This document shows positions 9,361 through 15,452 of a stretch of DNA of 64,000 nucleotides, in pieces. The notes under the pieces were generated by a model. The model was given only the letters and a program-made list of their open reading frames with translations, did not search any database and had not been told where the DNA came from. The first letter of the stretch is position 1. Every line of letters begins with the position of its first letter. Position numbers and translations under genes: made by a program. Source of the DNA: an uncultured Gammaproteobacteria bacterium (GTDB taxonomy: Bacteria > Patescibacteriota > Microgenomatia > Daviesbacterales > UBA10151); NCBI GenBank assembly GCA_964500725.1, contig CAZCNP010000005.1, forward strand, positions 6,348 through 70,347, in the 5' to 3' direction.

Positions 9361-9828
9361 TTGTGTTATACTGCATCAGTGCATAATTCATTTTATGCAA
9401 GCGGATTCCTCTACAGCTCTAAACTGCATCAAATTCTCTTGCTAAAATCCCCAAAGAAAGACAGTACAGATTTTGTATGGTCTACTCTTGGTGGGATAGG
9501 TGATGAAGAAGAACCCCAAGCTGCTTTTCAGAGGATTATATCTGAGCTGTTGGATTTAAATCTCAAAGCAAAAAACATTTATCCTATTTATGACTATTTG
9601 TCAGATACAAAGGATAAAATGAATTACGTGTTTTATGCTCAAGTAAAAAGCTCTAAGGGATTTAGCAACCTTGGTAAGAATATTCTTGAATGGGTATCCT
9701 TTCGTGAAATATCAAAGCTTCTATTTGCTGATCATTCCAAACGGGATGTTATAGTTGGTGAACGGGTTATCAATGCCAAATGGAGAGATGACGAAGCCAA
9801 AAAATTACCTCAAATAATAAATATTTAG
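9361..9828 (+). CDS. hypothetical protein with degenerate Nudix-like box
   Basis: GGIGDEEEPQAAFQRIISELLDL partially fits GX5EX7REUXEEXGU but lacks several invariant residues. Confidence 0.3.
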   Translation: MCYTASVHNSFYASGFLYSSKLHQILLLKSPKKDSTDFVWSTLGGIGDEEEPQAAFQRIISELLDLNLKAKNIYPIYDYLSDTKDKMNYVFYAQVKSSKGFSNLGKNILEWVSFREISKLLFADHSKRDVIVGERVINAKWRDDEAKKLPQIINI

Positions 9829-9976: not shown

Positions 9977-11272
9977 ATGGAAATTATCATTATTTTGTTA
10001 CTTATTATGCTTAACGGAGTTTTAGCCATGGCAGAAATTGCTATAGTTTCTGCGCGTAAATCAAGGCTTAAACAACAAGCAAACGAGGGAAATAAAAATG
10101 CGCAAGCAGCCTTAGAACTGGCTCAATCTCCCAGTAGGTTCCTTTCAACAGTACAAATTGGTATTACTTTTGTAGGTATTTTTGCCGGTGCTTTTGGAGG
10201 TGAAACAATTGCCAAAAATTTATCCAGTACACTGAAAAATGTTTCTTTACTGGCACCATACGCTGAGAGTATTGCAATTTTACTTGTTGTAACATTTATT
10301 ACCTATCTTTCTTTAATTATTGGGGAGCTTGTTCCAAAAAGAATAGCTTTAAACAGTCCTGAAACAATCTCTAAGCTTATGGTTTATCCAATGAATTTAT
10401 TATCTTCGATTGCTTCGCCTCTTGTTAGTTTATTAACATTTTCCTCAGATTGGGCACTCCGTCTGTTACAAATTAAGCAATCAGGTGAACCCATTGTTAG
10501 CGAAGAAGAAATTAGAATGTTGATAGGAGAAGGAACAAGAGCTGGTATTTTTAATATTGCAGAAAAAGATATTGTTGAAAGAACCTTGAAATTATCTGAT
10601 AAGAAGGTAAATTCCCTCATGACCACAAGAAAAGAGGTTGTTTGGCTTGAACTTGATAGCCCTTTTAAAACCTTAAGGAACAAAATTGCGAAACATCCTC
10701 ATGCTCATTTTCCGGTATGCAGAGATAACCTTGATAAAATTGTGGGTGTAGTTAGAGCGGAGGATATATTGACCCATTTCCTTTTGGAGGAAAAAATTGA
10801 ACTGCAAAAGTTTATCCGTAAGCCTCTTTTTGTGCCTGAAAGTATGGACGGGTTAAAAGTATTGGAACTATTTAAAAAGTCAGGAATTCATATGGCTTTG
10901 GTGGTTGATGAGTATGGCAATATTCAGGGATTGCTAACTATAACGGATATTTTAGAGGCAATTGTCGGTGATATTCCCACCATTGATGAGTTGGAAGAAC
11001 GCGAAATAACAAAACGGGAAGACGGAACGTACCTTGTTGATGGTTTAGCCCCAATTGATGAATTTAAAGATTACTTTCATATTAGAAAACTTCCCGATGA
11101 AAAATCAGGGGTGTTTCACACTGTTGGGGGCTTTATTATGTATAGGCTGGGGCATATTCCTGCTTCCGGAGATAAAGTGGAATGGACAGACTTTAAGTTT
11201 GAGGTAATGGATATGGATGGCAACAGAATAGATAAAATCTTGATCACGCCAAGGAAAATAACTATAAAGTAA
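9977..11272 (+). CDS. corC: CNNM/CorC/TlyC-family transporter (DUF21 membrane domain + CBS pair + CorC_HlyC domain)
   Basis: N-terminal 4-TM DUF21 region, tandem CBS-like segments and a C-terminal CorC/HlyC transporter-associated domain; 431 aa. Confidence 0.85.
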   Translation: MEIIIILLLIMLNGVLAMAEIAIVSARKSRLKQQANEGNKNAQAALELAQSPSRFLSTVQIGITFVGIFAGAFGGETIAKNLSSTLKNVSLLAPYAESIAILLVVTFITYLSLIIGELVPKRIALNSPETISKLMVYPMNLLSSIASPLVSLLTFSSDWALRLLQIKQSGEPIVSEEEIRMLIGEGTRAGIFNIAEKDIVERTLKLSDKKVNSLMTTRKEVVWLELDSPFKTLRNKIAKHPHAHFPVCRDNLDKIVGVVRAEDILTHFLLEEKIELQKFIRKPLFVPESMDGLKVLELFKKSGIHMALVVDEYGNIQGLLTITDILEAIVGDIPTIDELEEREITKREDGTYLVDGLAPIDEFKDYFHIRKLPDEKSGVFHTVGGFIMYRLGHIPASGDKVEWTDFKFEVMDMDGNRIDKILITPRKITIK

Positions 11273-11318
11273 TTCTCAATCAAAGTTCAATTTGTCCCTT
11301 CAGTGGTATTAAAAATTG

Positions 11319-11354
11319 AGGCTAAAAAATACTGGGGTGGGTGGGCAGACTTGC
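11319..11354 (+). promoter_or_regulatory. conserved G-rich motif copy 2 (gctaaaaaatACTGGGGTGGGTGGGCAGACTTGC) downstream of corC / upstream of coiled-coil gene
   Basis: Matches copy 1 over about 30 of 35 positions. Followed by perfect 8-bp hairpin TTTTTGAC-AAA-GTCAAAAA. Confidence 0.3.
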
Positions 11355-11462
11355 GTTTTTGACAAAGTCAAAAAGGAAAGCTTTGCTTACTTTGTACCCA
11401 GATCAGGTCTGATATAGATAAAATATCTTGTGTTTTTATCCAGACAATACTATGATTAATTC

Positions 11463-11726
11463 ATGGATGAAAATACTTTTAAGAAATTACTGGACGACGC
11501 TATAGCGCCACTTCGGCAAGACATAAAAGAATTAAAAGATGTCCAAGAGAATAGACTATTACCTTCCGTAACTGAGTTAGAAATTACTGTTAAATCATAT
11601 GCTGATAGCTACAAAATTAATAAGCATAATATTGAAAGGGTGGACACCAGATTGACTACTGTTGAGGAAGAATTAAATATTAAAGTTCCCGAAGACTTGA
11701 AAGTTCCCCATTTTGCTACAGAATAG
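11463..11726 (+). CDS. small coiled-coil protein (paralogous family member 2 of 3)
   Basis: TVKSYADSYKINKHNIERVDTRL...VPEDLKVPHF aligns with TIKGYADSYQANDTNIRKAEQRL...IPPELHFTP of ORF 25556..25948. Confidence 0.4.
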   Translation: MDENTFKKLLDDAIAPLRQDIKELKDVQENRLLPSVTELEITVKSYADSYKINKHNIERVDTRLTTVEEELNIKVPEDLKVPHFATE

Positions 11727-11863
11727 TTTTACCAAAGTGAGTGTGCAGATCGACAATCCTGAGTACACGAAGGACTCAGCTCGTACCCAGTTAAAGGAAT
11801 TTAAGCCTATTCATGTAATTCCTAATTATAACTTTTAAGATTCAGGTAGTTGTCCTATCTGGA

Positions 11864-12067
11864 TTATGTTTTATTTTTTTCATCAAAAAATTTTTTATAT
11901 TCTTTCCAATATTTCCTTGGGTCAATACTATTAGGATCCTGTCCGTCCCATAATTCCTTATATCTTTCAATCCAACTACTAAAGAAGGCTCTCGCTTCAG
12001 TAGGATTAGAATCTTTATTGGCCCATTCCTGAAAATCCATCCAATGACGTTTTTGTCTATTGATCAT
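11864..12067 (-). CDS. hypothetical small protein (W/Y-rich), second gene of a two-gene minus-strand operon
   Basis: 67 aa, 16 nt downstream of 12083..12472; no recognisable motif. Confidence 0.3.
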   Translation of the reverse strand: MINRQKRHWMDFQEWANKDSNPTEARAFFSSWIERYKELWDGQDPNSIDPRKYWKEYKKFFDEKNKT

Positions 12068-12082
12068 TGGAACATTGGGGTC

Positions 12083-12472
12083 CTACTCCCAATAGTACCT
12101 AATAGGTTCAGGTTTTGGTGGTTCCTCTCTTTTAACTTCAATTAAAGCGGCAGGATAATTTTTTACAAAATAATTAACCCAAGTCCTTCTTCTTGCACCT
12201 GTTGGTGCAGTAAGGTAATCTAAACCATTTATGTCCTGAGAATCAAAATAACGGGTAGGGCTATCTACTACTCCTGACCAGAGAACTCTCTTTGGTCTTC
12301 TAGGCGAGTAAATTGTTAAATGGTCTCCTTTTTCGATATAATGCAAGCGCTCCCAATAACCTTCAGTAGGGGTGTCTGCAAACACAGAAAGCAGTCCCCC
12401 TTCTGTACCTGTTTCCGAATGGATGTAACAGACTCCTTTTATTGGTTCTCCTTCCCTTGTAGAAATAGCCAT
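12083..12472 (-). CDS. hypothetical protein
   Basis: 129 aa; no recognisable motif. Confidence 0.35.
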   Translation of the reverse strand: MAISTREGEPIKGVCYIHSETGTEGGLLSVFADTPTEGYWERLHYIEKGDHLTIYSPRRPKRVLWSGVVDSPTRYFDSQDINGLDYLTAPTGARRRTWVNYFVKNYPAALIEVKREEPPKPEPIRYYWE

Positions 12473-12671
12473 AAGAAAGATTATATCAAGTAGGAAGATT
12501 ATTTACAACTATAGGTTTGGTGGTCTAGCGAACGATGTTAGAACCTATTATAGCCTCTGTAAGCCCCTGGAATTGGAAATATATAGAAATCTTTTTCTTA
12601 CACAAATTTAACTTAATTGTGGTAAAATTATTGACACAACTATTGAAAATATCATTTAATAAAGGAGAGAT

Positions 12672-13046
12672 ATGAAAAATAAAACATTAAGATTTGATAA
12701 CACATATAAATCAGGAAGAGTGTCCTTTTTAATGCTTAAGGATTTAAAACTCAATCGCTTTATTGCAATTTGCCTTGAATTTGATCTTGAAACGGAGGGG
12801 GCTACGGAAACAGAAGCACAAGAGAAAATAATAGAACTAGCTAATTTATGGCTAGAGAACGTAAGAGAGAATAAATTATCTGAAGAACTCTTAAACAAAA
12901 AAACTCCTCAAGAATATTGGGATTTATATAATGAGTTACAACAGAGACAGGAAGATTCAAGGAAAACGATAAACTTTTATTTGGATTCGATTAAAGTTAT
13001 GCCAATATTTCTTCAGTTTAGACCCTACCATTCATCATTGATTTAG
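12672..13046 (+). CDS. hicB: HicB-like antitoxin (UPF0150 / RNase H-like fold) with C-terminal extension
   Basis: FIAICLEFDLETEGATETEAQEKIIELANLWLE aligns with canonical HicB core YVAYVPDLPGCVSQGDTLEEALENIKEAIELYLE (EGAT-E-EA-EKIIELANLWLE vs QGDT-EEALENIKEAIELYLE). Upstream TTGACA and a GGAG ribosome-binding site. Confidence 0.55.
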   Translation: MKNKTLRFDNTYKSGRVSFLMLKDLKLNRFIAICLEFDLETEGATETEAQEKIIELANLWLENVRENKLSEELLNKKTPQEYWDLYNELQQRQEDSRKTINFYLDSIKVMPIFLQFRPYHSSLI

Positions 13047-13060
13047 AAAAACTTTGTAAA

Positions 13061-13270
13061 ATGAGATGGCGAAAAGTTCTCCAAAAAATAATAAGAATTG
13101 ATTATAAATTAGGTAAAAAATCAAATCACTTTGATATTTTTAATTGTCCTTGTCAGGATAAATTACATCCAGTAAAAATAGAAACAAAACATTTACCTGA
13201 TGAATGCAGGTTGTTTGATGCAATTAAAAGACAACTAGGGCCTCACCTTCAAGATTTTTTGAGAGCTTGA
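13061..13270 (+). CDS. hicA: HicA-like mRNA interferase toxin (divergent)
   Basis: 69 aa. KVLQKII...GKKSNHFDIF...HPVKIETKHLPDE..LFDAIKRQLG fits HicA/YcfA pattern (xLIKxLxxxGW...GSHxxFxHP...VTVPxHxxxL..GTLxxILKQAG) with GSH replaced by SNH. 14 nt after hicB. Confidence 0.45.
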   Translation: MRWRKVLQKIIRIDYKLGKKSNHFDIFNCPCQDKLHPVKIETKHLPDECRLFDAIKRQLGPHLQDFLRA

Positions 13271-13304
13271 ATACTGAATCTATATATTGATGGATTAAAT
13301 ACTA

Positions 13305-13381
13305 TGGGGTGATCGACGGGAGTTGAACCCGCAAACCGCCAGATCCACAATCTGGTGCTCTACCATTGAGCTACGATCACC
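13305..13381 (-). tRNA. trnH: tRNA-His (anticodon GTG) with encoded G-1 and CCA
   Basis: Reverse complement GGTGATCGTAGCTCAATGGTAGAGCACCAGATTGTGGATCTGG...GGTTCAACTCCCGTCGATCACCCCA folds as cloverleaf. Anticodon loop TTGTGGA; extra 5' G pairs with discriminator C. Confidence 0.9.
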
Positions 13382-13422
13382 ATGTGAATATATTTTAGCA
13401 TTATATTTTATACTTCGCCACT

Positions 13423-13448
13423 AAAAAACTCCCTTGCGGGAGTTTCTT
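13423..13448 (-). terminator. rho-independent terminator hairpin (ACTCCC-TTGC-GGGAGT) flanked by A6 / T-rich, downstream of GH5-like gene
   Basis: aaaaaaCTCCCttgcGGGAGtttctt; on minus strand the stem is followed by TTTTTT. Confidence 0.6.
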
Positions 13449-13583
13449 AGAGAACCTGTCAAATTAGTTTTTTAGGCTAATGTTTAAACTATATTTGTCT
13501 TACGACTCAAGTTTTTAACAGGTTCTATTACTATATAATTAAAAGCTTACTACGTCAACTAGGACAAAATAGCGCAAAACATA

Positions 13584-15452
13584 TCAATTTGAAAAAGGAA
13601 GGATTTTCCAAAGTTCTTTGGGCTGCAGCAGGGTAGAGAAGATATTAGGTTGCAGAACCCCAAAATCTAAAATATTAACTCCTGCATAAACTTTTTGATT
13701 GATACTTTTGGGATAATAAAAAGGCTTTTCTAAAGAAAACTCAAAAGCATAATCTGGCAGTAGATATCTTGCTTCTATCTCCTCTGAGGCTCCTGTTTTA
13801 TTTAAACTAATACTCTGGGCGCTTTCACCACTGGCTCCCTTAACTTTTAAAATATAGCTTCCAGCAAAGTCTTTTTTCCAGCCTAGACTACTAATAACCT
13901 TCAAAATCACAGGGGACTTTACTTCTGTGGTAAACTCAACAGGTTTTGAATCAAACTGCTTTTCTCCTGAAAAAAGATTTAAAGAAACCTTATATGTCCC
14001 ACTAAGGGGAGCTTTTAACTCTACAGTAAAGGTATGCTCCCCTCCAGGCTCAACTTTTATACCATTTGGTAAATTAACATCAGTAATTCCTAAATCTTTT
14101 CCTCCAAAAATAGCAGTCAGCTTTACCTGCTCTCCATCATTCCAAATTGACTGGCCAGTATTTCTAAAAGTTAAATAAATTTTATAGCTTTCTCCTGAAA
14201 CTATTGAGGTATACACTTCTCCTTTCTTCAGCTCTGCTTTTTTATCCTGGACAGGCTTGCCTATTACTTTAGGCAGTGCTTGGATTGTTTGGAACATGGG
14301 GTAATATGGACTGTCTGGATATTCAGTCCCCAAAATAGTTTTTGCCTGTCTTTCCCCTGTAATTTTTTTAAAGGAAAAGTGGTCAAAAGGATAATCTTGG
14401 TAGCTTAGTAAAAAGGGTGTAACAGCCACAATTTTATTAAAACTCCAGGCATTTTCAAAAGCATTTTTGTAATAATTTGCTACAGTTTCTGCAGTAGGTA
14501 AACTAGAGTTATAGCTTAATCCTTCTGCATGTTTCCAGCCTGTTTCAGCTATAAAGATAGGTAAGTTTTTAGTTACTCCCAGCTCACGCAGGATTTGTAG
14601 TTCCCAAGCATAAGTTCTAACAGTTCCTTTTCCTGCAGCCTCTGGGGATCCAGCAAAAGCAGGGTTAGGGTAAGAGTGAGAAACCCAACCATCCAGCTTA
14701 TTAAAAATTCCTGGCACAGCTTTCTCCATTTGATTTAAGAAATTGGACTCTTCCTCATAAGCAGGAGGTTGGGGAGGTGTTGATGCATCTAAACCAGCAT
14801 TGAGTACAAAAAAGTCTTTATTTTTATTTTTTAGCGCTGTAATAGTCTTATCTAGAACTTTTGCATAAGATGCAGCGTCAACTAAATTTCCCCATTCCTT
14901 AGCATGGTTTGGTTCGTTATAAATAATTATGTAGCGATTCTTGGTAGGCCAATTTAGGGCATCTAAAAAATCTGCCCAGGCTTGTTCTTCTCCTTCATAA
15001 GGCAGTTTCCAAAAATTACCTTCTGGTTGAGTAGCAAGTCTCACCAAAGGAATCAAATGTCTTCTCCTTAGGTCATTAAAAAAGTTTTGCCACTTTTCAT
15101 GGTTTCTATCTTTGCTTTCAACTAAAACAGTAATATATCCCCAGTCACCATTAGTATTAACCAGCTGGGCAGCAGGGGAGGCCTCCTCATGAGTAGCTTG
15201 AATAATATGAATACCAAAACGGTTGTTGGGCACAGAAAGAGGGTCAACAATAGCATTAATAGTTGTGAGCTGAGAGTTTGTAGTTGGTAGTAAAAAAAGC
15301 AATAAAAATGCTATTAAACTTTGAACTAATAACTTCGAACTAATAACTGATTTTGCTCCTTGACTTTTGGCTTTTCTTCGGGTTATGTTAAATAACATGC
15401 TGGAAATTTTTGAACCTATCAATGTTTGGGTCTTTTTTAAAAATAACTCCAT
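13584..15452 (-). CDS. membrane-anchored glycoside hydrolase, GH5-like (cellulase family fold) with C-terminal beta-sandwich repeats
   Basis: IIIYNEPN (catalytic acid NEP) and IFIAETGW (nucleophile Glu) motifs typical of clan GH-A/GH5; N-terminal TM anchor; 622 aa. Confidence 0.6.
   Translation of the reverse strand: MELFLKKTQTLIGSKISSMLFNITRRKAKSQGAKSVISSKLLVQSLIAFLLLFLLPTTNSQLTTINAIVDPLSVPNNRFGIHIIQATHEEASPAAQLVNTNGDWGYITVLVESKDRNHEKWQNFFNDLRRRHLIPLVRLATQPEGNFWKLPYEGEEQAWADFLDALNWPTKNRYIIIYNEPNHAKEWGNLVDAASYAKVLDKTITALKNKNKDFFVLNAGLDASTPPQPPAYEEESNFLNQMEKAVPGIFNKLDGWVSHSYPNPAFAGSPEAAGKGTVRTYAWELQILRELGVTKNLPIFIAETGWKHAEGLSYNSSLPTAETVANYYKNAFENAWSFNKIVAVTPFLLSYQDYPFDHFSFKKITGERQAKTILGTEYPDSPYYPMFQTIQALPKVIGKPVQDKKAELKKGEVYTSIVSGESYKIYLTFRNTGQSIWNDGEQVKLTAIFGGKDLGITDVNLPNGIKVEPGGEHTFTVELKAPLSGTYKVSLNLFSGEKQFDSKPVEFTTEVKSPVILKVISSLGWKKDFAGSYILKVKGASGESAQSISLNKTGASEEIEARYLLPDYAFEFSLEKPFYYPKSINQKVYAGVNILDFGVLQPNIFSTLLQPKELWKILPFSN

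Follow-up and report, generated by a model that had tools for sequence, protein, structure and literature searches.

Known HicAB systems and the present locus

Among the described HicAB toxin–antitoxin (TA) systems, the most common arrangement has hicB before hicA and a HicB without a DNA-binding domain (Gerdes 2024, mBio 15:e03293-23, PMC10865869). The structurally solved set used here for comparison (E. coli, 6hpb; B. pseudomallei, 6g26, 6g1c and 6g1n; Y. pestis HicA3B3, 4p78; S. pneumoniae, 5yrz; T. thermophilus TTHA1913, 1whz) is built differently, with hicA as the first gene and a HicB whose C-terminal HTH or RHH domain represses the operon. We compared both designs with two small genes located between a CorC/CNNM gene and a tRNA-His gene of the window, i.e., of the whole 64,000-nucleotide stretch analysed (Table 1). 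Our preferred explanation, which we consider probable, is that the CorC/CNNM-to-tRNA-His stretch is a small lineage-variable patch in a Daviesbacteria-like genome (candidate phyla radiation), in which the sole recognisable system is a divergent type II TA operon of the hicBA type. The pair itself would be a previously unannotated, very divergent yet otherwise ordinary HicB–HicA TA system.

The pair is similar to Class 2 of Gerdes because hicB is located first and is tightly linked to hicA, with gaps of −20 to +14 nt at 11 loci; the window has 14 nt, and the ten others range from −20 to +5 nt. In addition, the predicted antitoxin core is a beta-beta-beta-alpha partial RNase-H-like fold without an HTH, RHH or Phd domain, and the genomic contexts are varied. 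The differences concern the size of HicB (63–103 codons in Class 2, a range exceeded by the 114–134 aa found here, 124 aa in the window), its extra helical segment with the NKLSEELLN motif and N-terminal NNTYxSG motif, the invariant N-C-P-C...H-P...KRQLGPH set of HicA, and the failure of Pfam and NCBIfam models to recognise either protein. In contrast to the solved complexes, hicB comes first here, the C-terminal HTH/RHH DNA-binding domain of the classical HicB Classes 3 and 4 was not found in the 124-aa protein, and the beta2-beta3 loop of the toxin candidate is longer and carries a Cys-Pro-Cys...His-Pro motif. The hicB–hicA order, taken for a reversed one in an earlier sequence-only reading of this DNA, is the commonest arrangement (PMC10865869).

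Table 1. Features between the CorC/CNNM gene and the 622-aa gene (positions in the window)
Feature	Position	Strand	Remarks
Candidate att-like remnant, degenerate tRNA-His 3' end and flank (AAATAC-TGGGGTGGGTG)	11328-11346		weak alignment
Long hairpin downstream of the CorC/CNNM gene	11335-11400	+	-28.8 kcal/mol, z -4.1
87-aa ORF, coiled-coil-like sequence	11463-11726	+	orphan; unproven as a gene
Hairpin resembling a terminator, flanked by the convergent 87-aa ORF and interrupted gene	11839-11865	+	terminator scan; fold
Interrupted orphan gene, ~201 codons	11864-12472	-	in-frame amber TAG at 12083-12085
67-aa ORF	11864-12067	-	3' part of the interrupted gene
129-aa ORF	12083-12472	-	5' part of the interrupted gene
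Divergent intergenic region	12473-12671		AGGAG ribosome-binding site 7 nt 5' of the 124-aa start codon
HicBA-type operon (probable)	12672-13270	+
HicB-like antitoxin candidate, 124 aa	12672-13046	+	beta-beta-beta-alpha core (predicted), helical C-terminal extension
HicA-like candidate, 69 aa	13061-13270	+	S21-N22-H23; family-specific N-C-P-C...H-P...KRQLGPH motif
tRNA-His (GTG)	13305-13380	-	ARAGORN; Rfam tRNA 66.2 bits; 3' end towards the hicBA-like genes
Intrinsic terminator of the 622-aa gene	13418-13445	-	G+C-rich; upstream of tRNA-His

Sequence comparisons of the pair

The 124-aa protein includes ETEGATETEAQEKIIELANLWLEN, the HicB-like core named in the sequence-only reading, and the reported 14-nt gap to the 69-aa gene is also correct. 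Pfam, NCBIfam and PADLOC models did not reach their thresholds for the 124-aa protein, the 69-aa protein or any member of their families. For the 69-aa protein of the window, Pfam gave zero matches at E up to 1 and NCBIfam was also empty, while none of the 25 members of the 124-aa family matched a HicB family in Pfam or NCBIfam. Among the sub-threshold signals, Pfam HicA_toxin matched one of the 29 members of the 69-aa family (E 0.0093, under the cut-off), phrog_353 “toxin” was matched by five members and phrog_497 “HicB-like” by three members of the 124-aa family (E 0.26); PHROGs scans made with the single sequences and per member gave no significant HicA or HicB match. In hhalign, TEGATETEAQEKIIEL was aligned with TQGETVAEAMEAAKDA of E. 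coli HicB at a probability below 1%, and no significant result came from hhalign, BLASTP or a shuffle-tested global alignment with E. coli HicA and HicB, which is why we do not claim homology at the sequence level. Family profiles searched against PDB sequences retrieved chance matches only (apolipoprotein A-IV and a Shedu effector).

The sequence-only reading had proposed that a lack of significant HMM hits would speak against the HicA/HicB assignment, and such hits were indeed not obtained. However, E. coli HicA retrieves only itself among PDB sequences at E up to 10. Since bona fide HicA proteins miss each other by sequence, an HMM-hit test cannot decide the HicA/HicB identity.

Both families are tiny (25–29 clusters among 5.8 billion), and their named members come only from Microgenomates-type genomes of the candidate phyla radiation (CPR), several of the contigs being from groundwater metagenomes. 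Viral contigs scanned with both family alignments gave no matches; a Foldseek search of viral structures reached a non-significant best E of 0.2, with several of the named top matches being HicA-like. Proteins of the 124-aa family are called at 114–172 aa, most of them at 122–134 aa. Pairwise identity falls to 30–35%, yet 16 columns are invariant in the 124-aa family, including the NKLSEELLN motif, and nine in the 69-aa family, where C29, C31, H36 and H62 are invariant and C49 is nearly so. Invariant motifs of this kind in both proteins are unusually strong for a TA pair and count against the TA reading.

Predicted folds and the conserved histidine

The predicted structure of the 69-aa protein has an alpha-beta-beta-beta-alpha dsRBD-like fold, for which the fold search placed solved HicA structures nearest. 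In the model of the 124-aa protein, the N-terminal part forms a partial RNase-H-like fold, beta-beta-beta-alpha(-beta), nearest to solved HicB structures. The top matches are thus HicA and HicB specifically and not generic dsRBDs, at only 7–19% sequence identity to the structurally characterised HicAB proteins. The 124-aa model is of moderate confidence (mean pLDDT 67, below 50 in the tail beyond residue 98), and it continues with helices 71–75 and 80–96 followed by a disordered tail; Pfam detected no DNA-binding domain in the 124-aa family. Such an antitoxin is consistent with the HicAB classes lacking this domain (PMC10865869). The HicB–HicA identity is supported by the predicted fold and gene arrangement and not by sequence models.

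H23 of the 69-aa protein, located between model strands 16–20 and 25–28, is kept in 26 of the 29 family members and replaced by Glu in the other three. The conserved catalytic histidine of HicA toxins is located at the beta1-beta2 turn (His24 of the B. pseudomallei protein and His28 of that of Y. pestis). The E. coli toxin has G20-S21-N22-H23, which includes the same S21-N22-H23 as the 69-aa protein, and pairwise sequence alignment leaves the two histidines unpaired. Because His23 is the catalytic residue of E. coli HicA (PMC11594946), the earlier suggestion that the SNH triplet may make the toxin inactive is not justified.

Behaviour of the pair across genomes

Wherever the available sequence suffices, a gene of the 69-aa type follows one of the 124-aa type, as was observed in 18 separate places. 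Thirteen of the 15 metagenome loci are among them, the remaining two being 1.1-kb contigs. The identity matrices of the two protein types correlate (r = 0.67 for 11 loci, a value reached in 0 of 5000 Mantel permutations), indicating co-divergence. In three places, the module adjoins other TA or defence genes: an EcoRI-type methylase with GmrSD/HNH (L007), YafQ/RelB with Fic (L054), and PemK with ParE (L057). Elsewhere it is found with IS110 (L008/L009), between recO and glyS (L059), or 140 nt from tRNA-Arg (L052). These data support the 124/69-aa pair as a conserved two-gene module moving between genomic contexts. The initial recognition of a HicB/HicA-like pair is supported by the predicted folds and by this behaviour.

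By analogy with the solved HicAB complexes, the 69-aa protein would be a dsRBD-fold, ribosome-independent RNase using His23, and the 124-aa protein would bind it via helix alpha1 of the partial RNase-H-like domain, masking the active site. Loss or titration of the antitoxin, e.g., under phage infection or stress, would release the toxin, which would cut RNA and stop growth. On the same analogy, we infer toxicity and RNase activity of the toxin and its neutralisation by the antitoxin. Since the HicB-like protein, as in Gerdes Class 2, is without a DNA-binding domain, any autoregulation would have to use other means.

The findings leave the general understanding of HicAB systems unchanged, but they reveal an annotation gap: standard sequence models miss an entire small HicBA-like family in CPR genomes, which structure prediction combined with gene neighbourhood recovers. 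This is relevant to the annotation of TA and defence systems in reduced genomes, and the invariant motifs, unusual as they are, offer concrete residues for mutagenesis, also at a possible metal site of the toxin. One can also suggest, as an unlikely extension, that the pair represents a distinct CPR-restricted HicAB class, in which the enlarged beta2-beta3 loop of the toxin would carry a Cys/His metal site (C29, C31, H36, H62; C49) and an extra antitoxin module (NNTYxSG plus NKLSEELLN) would replace the DNA-binding domain. If this were true, the module might, for example, sense a trigger or bind RNA, and control or catalysis would be unlike those of all studied HicAB systems.

The variable site at tRNA-His

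In the window, CorC is followed by five ORFs and then by the 3' end of tRNA-His, so the genes are found 3' of tRNA-His, a position that is upstream of it in plus-strand terms. At the corresponding site of L014, where CorC is 93% identical, tRNA-His begins 25 nt after CorC, and all five ORFs are absent. In L018 (CorC 95% identical), the site is occupied instead by a glyoxalase-like gene, DUF3800 and a gene for a 230-aa membrane protein. The stretch thus lies at a tRNA 3' end, and close relatives lack it at this position. This comparison agrees with the part of the sequence-only reading that expected an accessory islet at the tRNA; the mobile character also proposed there is less certain, for the reasons discussed below.

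The interrupted gene

The convergent “two-gene operon” described earlier for the 129-aa and 67-aa ORFs turned out to be one gene. The two ORFs share a single frame, in which a TAG codon is the only separator (...YYWE*DPNVPMINRQ...), and its only relatives, both uninterrupted, align end to end with the joined translation: P0056 (205 aa, 78% identity), with CAG (Gln) at the position of TAG, and P0057 (213 aa, 62%), with GAG (Glu). The common frame and the uninterrupted relatives point to a single gene carrying a nonsense codon. When searched against 1.84 billion representative proteins, the 67-aa part matches only itself and residues 138–205 of P0057, and neither family models nor the PDB gave a relative that would hint at the function of the gene. 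A sequencing error is unlikely as an origin of TAG, since the independent assemblies L001 and L002 have the identical codon. Reassignment of the stop codon was ruled out: TAG ends 11 of the 51 long ORFs here, including the neighbouring HicB-like gene. Judging from these sequence comparisons, the two ORFs are one orphan gene with an apparently recently gained amber nonsense codon. In no other genome is this gene associated with the TA pair.

Alternative explanations

Instead of a TA system, the pair could be a non-toxic, conserved RNA-binding or RNA-processing unit of CPR bacteria having no more than the dsRBD and partial RNase-H folds in common with HicA and HicB. The strong conservation described above would suit this role, as would the Cys/His set, which is not a HicA feature, the missing autoregulatory DNA-binding domain and the silence of the HicA and HicB models. 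We nevertheless hold it to be quite improbable: the best structural matches are too specific for generic dsRBDs, accepted HicAB classes often have a HicB that lacks a DNA-binding domain (PMC10865869), the family is tiny, and the patchy module, missing at the locus of the nearest relatives and found in unrelated contexts, three of them beside TA or defence genes, is unlike a housekeeping pair. The hicBA-type TA operon in a variable patch is thus preferred, and the question is how the patch arose. Similarly to tRNA-linked islets and integrative elements, it occupies a tRNA 3' end site, is absent or replaced in the closest relatives, is partly atypical in G+C (0.29 for the hicBA genes, 0.365 for the window mean) and possibly has a short tRNA-end repeat at its far edge. 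The whole 2-kb stretch (~11347–13304) might then be what is left of a decayed integrative element, which would have entered the 3' end of tRNA-His by site-specific insertion, regenerated the tRNA and left a degenerate copy of its end near CorC. Such an origin is suggested by the cargo abutting the 3' end of the tRNA, by the empty site of L014 and by the candidate att remnant, where TGGGGTGG-TG stands right after the flank segment GAGGCTAAAAAAT, at the point where the tRNA of L014 begins; in L014, the real tRNA-His comes immediately after a related GGGGCTAAATATGTT, and the segment of L018 is followed by tRNA-His at ~35 nt. However, the repeat is marginal: AAATAC(TA)TGGGGTG agrees with the tRNA flank of the window at 13 of 15 positions (shuffle p ~0.04; ~0.09 against L014), a repeat scan did not list it, and the same bases double as the 5' arm of the strong hairpin 11335–11400. 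No integrase or recombinase was found as an ORF or family match in 11273–13304 or the flanking genes, the element would measure only ~2 kb, and its contents look like a patchwork. L018 has different cargo inserted elsewhere, with CorC on one side and the shared flank segment on the other. In another relative, L044, the interrupted gene is found in broadly the same surroundings, close to the same NUDIX gene, which points towards a local resident and not a gene that came in with the TA pair. An integrative origin is therefore rather doubtful, although it deserves consideration, and the lineage-variable patch with a hicBA-type operon better fits the data.

For the interrupted gene, the alternative to decay is a functional split or recoded gene, expressed through reinitiation at the ATG six codons past TAG (15 nt beyond the stop) or through readthrough. 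The sequence past TAG is free of further stops, dN/dS relative to L047 is equal on both sides (0.43 after TAG, 0.45 before), and the same TAG recurs in several assemblies. However, equal dN/dS would also follow from a very recent mutation, and all the TAG-bearing assemblies come from one sequencing project, so they probably represent one population. Moreover, this genome uses TAG as an ordinary stop, both relatives are intact, and no Shine-Dalgarno sequence was found at a usable distance 5' of the internal ATG. These arguments make a split or recoded gene decidedly unlikely, and we prefer one orphan gene with a recent nonsense codon.

Minor features of the locus

For the 87-aa ORF, an orphan unverified as a gene, no family match reached the threshold. 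Its protein forms a singleton cluster, tblastn gave no relatives at the related loci covered or among viral contigs and phage records, and the ORF does not accompany the TA pair in other genomes. Both the interrupted gene and the hicBA-like operon presumably have their promoters in the divergent intergenic region; only consensus promoter-like matches were obtained there, and no operator. A non-coding RNA in the intergenic regions is not supported, since Rfam gives the tRNA alone.

All the ORFs, tRNA-His and the hairpin 13418–13445 are located where the sequence-only reading had placed them. On the minus strand, this hairpin folds with −20.5 kcal/mol (z −6.0) and is followed by UUUUUU, while the plus-strand fold is weaker (−14.4 kcal/mol); it is missing from the output of a simple terminator scan. 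Its position between the 622-aa gene and tRNA-His identifies it as the terminator of the 622-aa gene and not, as previously proposed, a boundary of the islet genes. The hairpin downstream of the CorC/CNNM gene is not present in L014 or L018, and none of 200 shuffled sequences folds equally well. The hairpin between the 87-aa ORF and the interrupted gene has a plus-strand fold of −11.5 kcal/mol (z −3.0), followed by a U-rich tail.

A Divergent, Probably hicBA-Type Module

The locus carries a hicBA-type toxin–antitoxin (TA) module of an ordinary kind, situated in a variable spot adjoining a tRNA; the family from which it comes is divergent and unannotated. The ORFs and coordinates of the sequence-only reading were correct according to our read-out of the region (see table; window G+C 36.5%, all three stop codons in use), while the ORFs neighbouring the pair had been over-interpreted.

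Features of the region between the NUDIX gene and the 622-aa gene
Feature	Position	Strand
NUDIX gene	9361-9828	+
CNNM/CorC transporter gene	9977-11272	+
87-aa ORF	11463-11726	+
67-aa ORF	11864-12067	-
129-aa ORF	12083-12472	-
124-aa ORF	12672-13046	+
69-aa ORF	13061-13270	+
tRNA-His(GTG)	13305-13380	-
G+C-rich hairpin	13418-13445	
622-aa gene	13584-15452	-

The proposed identity of the 124-aa and 69-aa proteins as HicB and HicA is backed by the folds of both, which gave a clear answer, unlike the silent sequence models. In the model of the 124-aa protein, the confident core consists of three strands and a long helix (pLDDT 84–91 over blocks 21–60), and the motif EGATETEAQEKIIELANLWLE, already picked out from the sequence, forms the beta3/alpha1 junction plus helix alpha1. 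This helix of HicB packs on the HicA sheet in solved complexes (PMC10865869). Neither Pfam scans nor the predicted model revealed an HTH or RHH domain in the 124-aa protein and its family (25 clusters), and the antitoxin is longer than the Class 2 HicB proteins (124 aa vs. 63–103 codons).

The triplet “SNH”, earlier taken for an altered and possibly inactive “GSH”, is the one present in E. coli HicA (A-N-G-S-N-H-L, with S21-N22-H23), where His23 is important for RNase activity (review PMC11594946). In the window’s 69-aa protein, S21-N22-H23 is located between model strands one and two, and H23 is retained in 26 of the 29 clusters composing its family; from the position and topology, we infer that it is equivalent to His23 of E. 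coli HicA. The hicB–hicA order, described as “reversed”, is not unusual either: among the 14 HicA contexts defined by Gerdes (mBio 2024), hicBA with a HicB devoid of the DNA-binding domain is the most common bicistronic arrangement (PMC10865869).

By analogy with the solved HicAB complexes and the cited reviews, the 69-aa protein would be a small RNase using His23, and the 124-aa protein would neutralise it, with helix alpha1 covering the His23 face. Loss of the antitoxin would free the toxin and cause growth arrest, possibly serving as abortive-infection defence. Potentially new biology is limited to two features, the toxin’s conserved Cys/His set and the additional motifs conserved in the antitoxin. 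In the 69-aa family, N28, C29, C31, H36, P37, K56, L59, G60, and H62 are invariant and C49 is nearly so, a pattern which suggests a metal site within an enlarged beta2–beta3 loop; the 124-aa family has the invariant motifs L..N-T-Y..G at the N-terminus and N..N.L.E.LLN...W after the helix.

Sequence searches returned no match of either protein to HicA or HicB models in Pfam, NCBIfam, and PADLOC (E up to 1), and nothing significant was found for the family profiles against PDB sequences or by hhalign and BLASTP against E. coli HicA and HicB. When the members were scanned individually, HicA_toxin was matched by one of the 29 members of the 69-aa family (E 0.009), phrog_353 “toxin” by five, and Pfam zf-C2HC was touched by two (E about 0.012); phrog_497 “HicB-like” was matched by 3 of the 25 members of the 124-aa family (E 0.26). 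A lack of HMM hits had been named as refuting the assignment, and formally no match passed the threshold; however, this criterion is weak because E. coli HicA itself matches no other solved HicA by sequence (E up to 10). In addition, 23 of the 25 members of the 124-aa family match phrog_12841, an unannotated phage family without known function (best E 1.8e-6), which is therefore probably HicB-like too.

Wherever the downstream sequence suffices, a 69-aa-type gene lies 3' of the 124-aa-type gene. Such pairs number 18 at separate places, and among the 15 metagenome loci only two, both on contigs of 1.1 kb, do not show one. In 11 loci, the intergenic gap ranges from -20 to +14 nt, and the two proteins co-diverge, their identity matrices being correlated (r = 0.67, reached in 0 of 5000 permutations). 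The contexts change: an EcoRI-type methylase with a GmrSD/HNH protein (L007), YafQ/RelB plus Fic (L054), PemK plus ParE (L057), IS110 (L008/L009), or a position between recO and glyS (L059). The pair thus behaves as a mobile TA module, including its clustering with other TA genes, which Gerdes described (PMC10865869).

L007 (4756-6973) contains the closest relative of the pair (72% identity), directly followed by the methylase and GmrSD/HNH genes and then by LexA-like and Rad52-like genes; such surroundings resemble those of a defence locus or a mobile element. In L052 (5787-6577), an unrelated metagenome contig, the pair starts 140 nt from tRNA-Arg(TCT), giving a second tRNA-side case.

Neighbouring ORFs

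The “two unknown genes” of 129 and 67 aa represent one interrupted gene in a single frame, which has end-to-end relatives uninterrupted by a stop. A search of 5.8 billion clusters gave just two relatives for the 129-aa ORF, of 205 and 213 aa, and the single-frame translation from 12472 to 11864 (...RYYWE*DPNVPMINRQKRHWMDF...) aligns with both over the full length (78% and 62% identity). Apart from itself, the 67-aa part matched solely the C-terminal portion of the 213-aa relative (HMMER, 1.84 billion representative proteins); no family was detectable for the whole protein in the searches run. Where the window has TAG, an ordinary stop codon in this genome, the codons of the two relatives are CAG (Gln) and GAG (Glu); TAG is also present in the two independent aligned assemblies, L001 and L002. 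Since dN/dS is equal after and before the stop (0.43 and 0.45), the mutation is recent unless reinitiation at an ATG 15 nt downstream of TAG still yields the distal part. Another relative (L044) has the gene intact, two genes away from a NUDIX gene 67% identical to the window’s and in the same relative orientation; therefore, the interrupted gene may have long resided in this neighbourhood instead of coming in with the TA pair.

For the 87-aa ORF, none of the searches gave a relative and the family matches were at chance level; it may not be a gene. It is separated from the convergent interrupted gene by a terminator-like hairpin (11839-11865).

A Variable Patch at tRNA-His

Judged by the CorC protein, the closest genomes are L014, a MAG of Candidatus Daviesbacteria (93% identity), and L018 (95%), a MAG which is titled “Gammaproteobacteria” and clearly belongs to the same lineage. 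The window would thus derive from a Daviesbacteria-like member of the candidate phyla radiation. The shared backbone consists of CorC, tRNA-His, and the 622-aa gene. In L014, tRNA-His begins 25 nt past CorC and all five ORFs are absent, and the other (5') side of tRNA-His (11494-13749) carries genes for an ECF-type sigma factor, an NYN-domain protein, and a membrane-anchored protein; in L018, the interval from CorC to the tRNA is occupied by glyoxalase-like, DUF3800, and membrane-protein genes. The L014 sigma factor gene has unusually high G+C-type codons.

Of the proposed mobile islet, the variable hot spot at the tRNA is upheld and the integrative element is not. The stretch contains no integrase, and the candidate tRNA 3'-end remnant, TGGGGTGG-TG after the common flank GAGGCTAAAAAAT, barely beats shuffles (p about 0.04 and 0.09) and is also an arm of a strong local hairpin. 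We therefore regard this region as a variable patch whose contents are mixed, not as a demonstrated integrative element. G+C is 29% over the hicBA part (12600-13200) vs. 36.5% in the window, and 0.40 over the interrupted gene (12000-12400) vs. the mean of 0.365, which suggests different origins of these neighbouring genes. For the G+C-rich hairpin, thought to “bound” the islet, the best reading is a minus-strand terminator belonging to the 622-aa gene (-20.5 kcal/mol, followed by U6).

A long hairpin just 3' of CorC (11335-11400; -28.8 kcal/mol, z -4.1) was more stable than all 200 shuffles; neither of the two closest relatives has it, and it gave no Rfam match. The 622-aa protein, conserved at 64% identity in L014, has just weak matches to GH5 cellulase and Ig-like domains; it may be a poorly annotated, secreted glycoside-hydrolase-like protein. 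CorC proteins 63–95% identical to the window’s occur in MAG contigs titled “uncultured Gammaproteobacteria” (L018, with a NUDIX neighbour 74% identical to the window’s, L015, L023-L025, L027, and L030), and these titles are probably taxonomically wrong.
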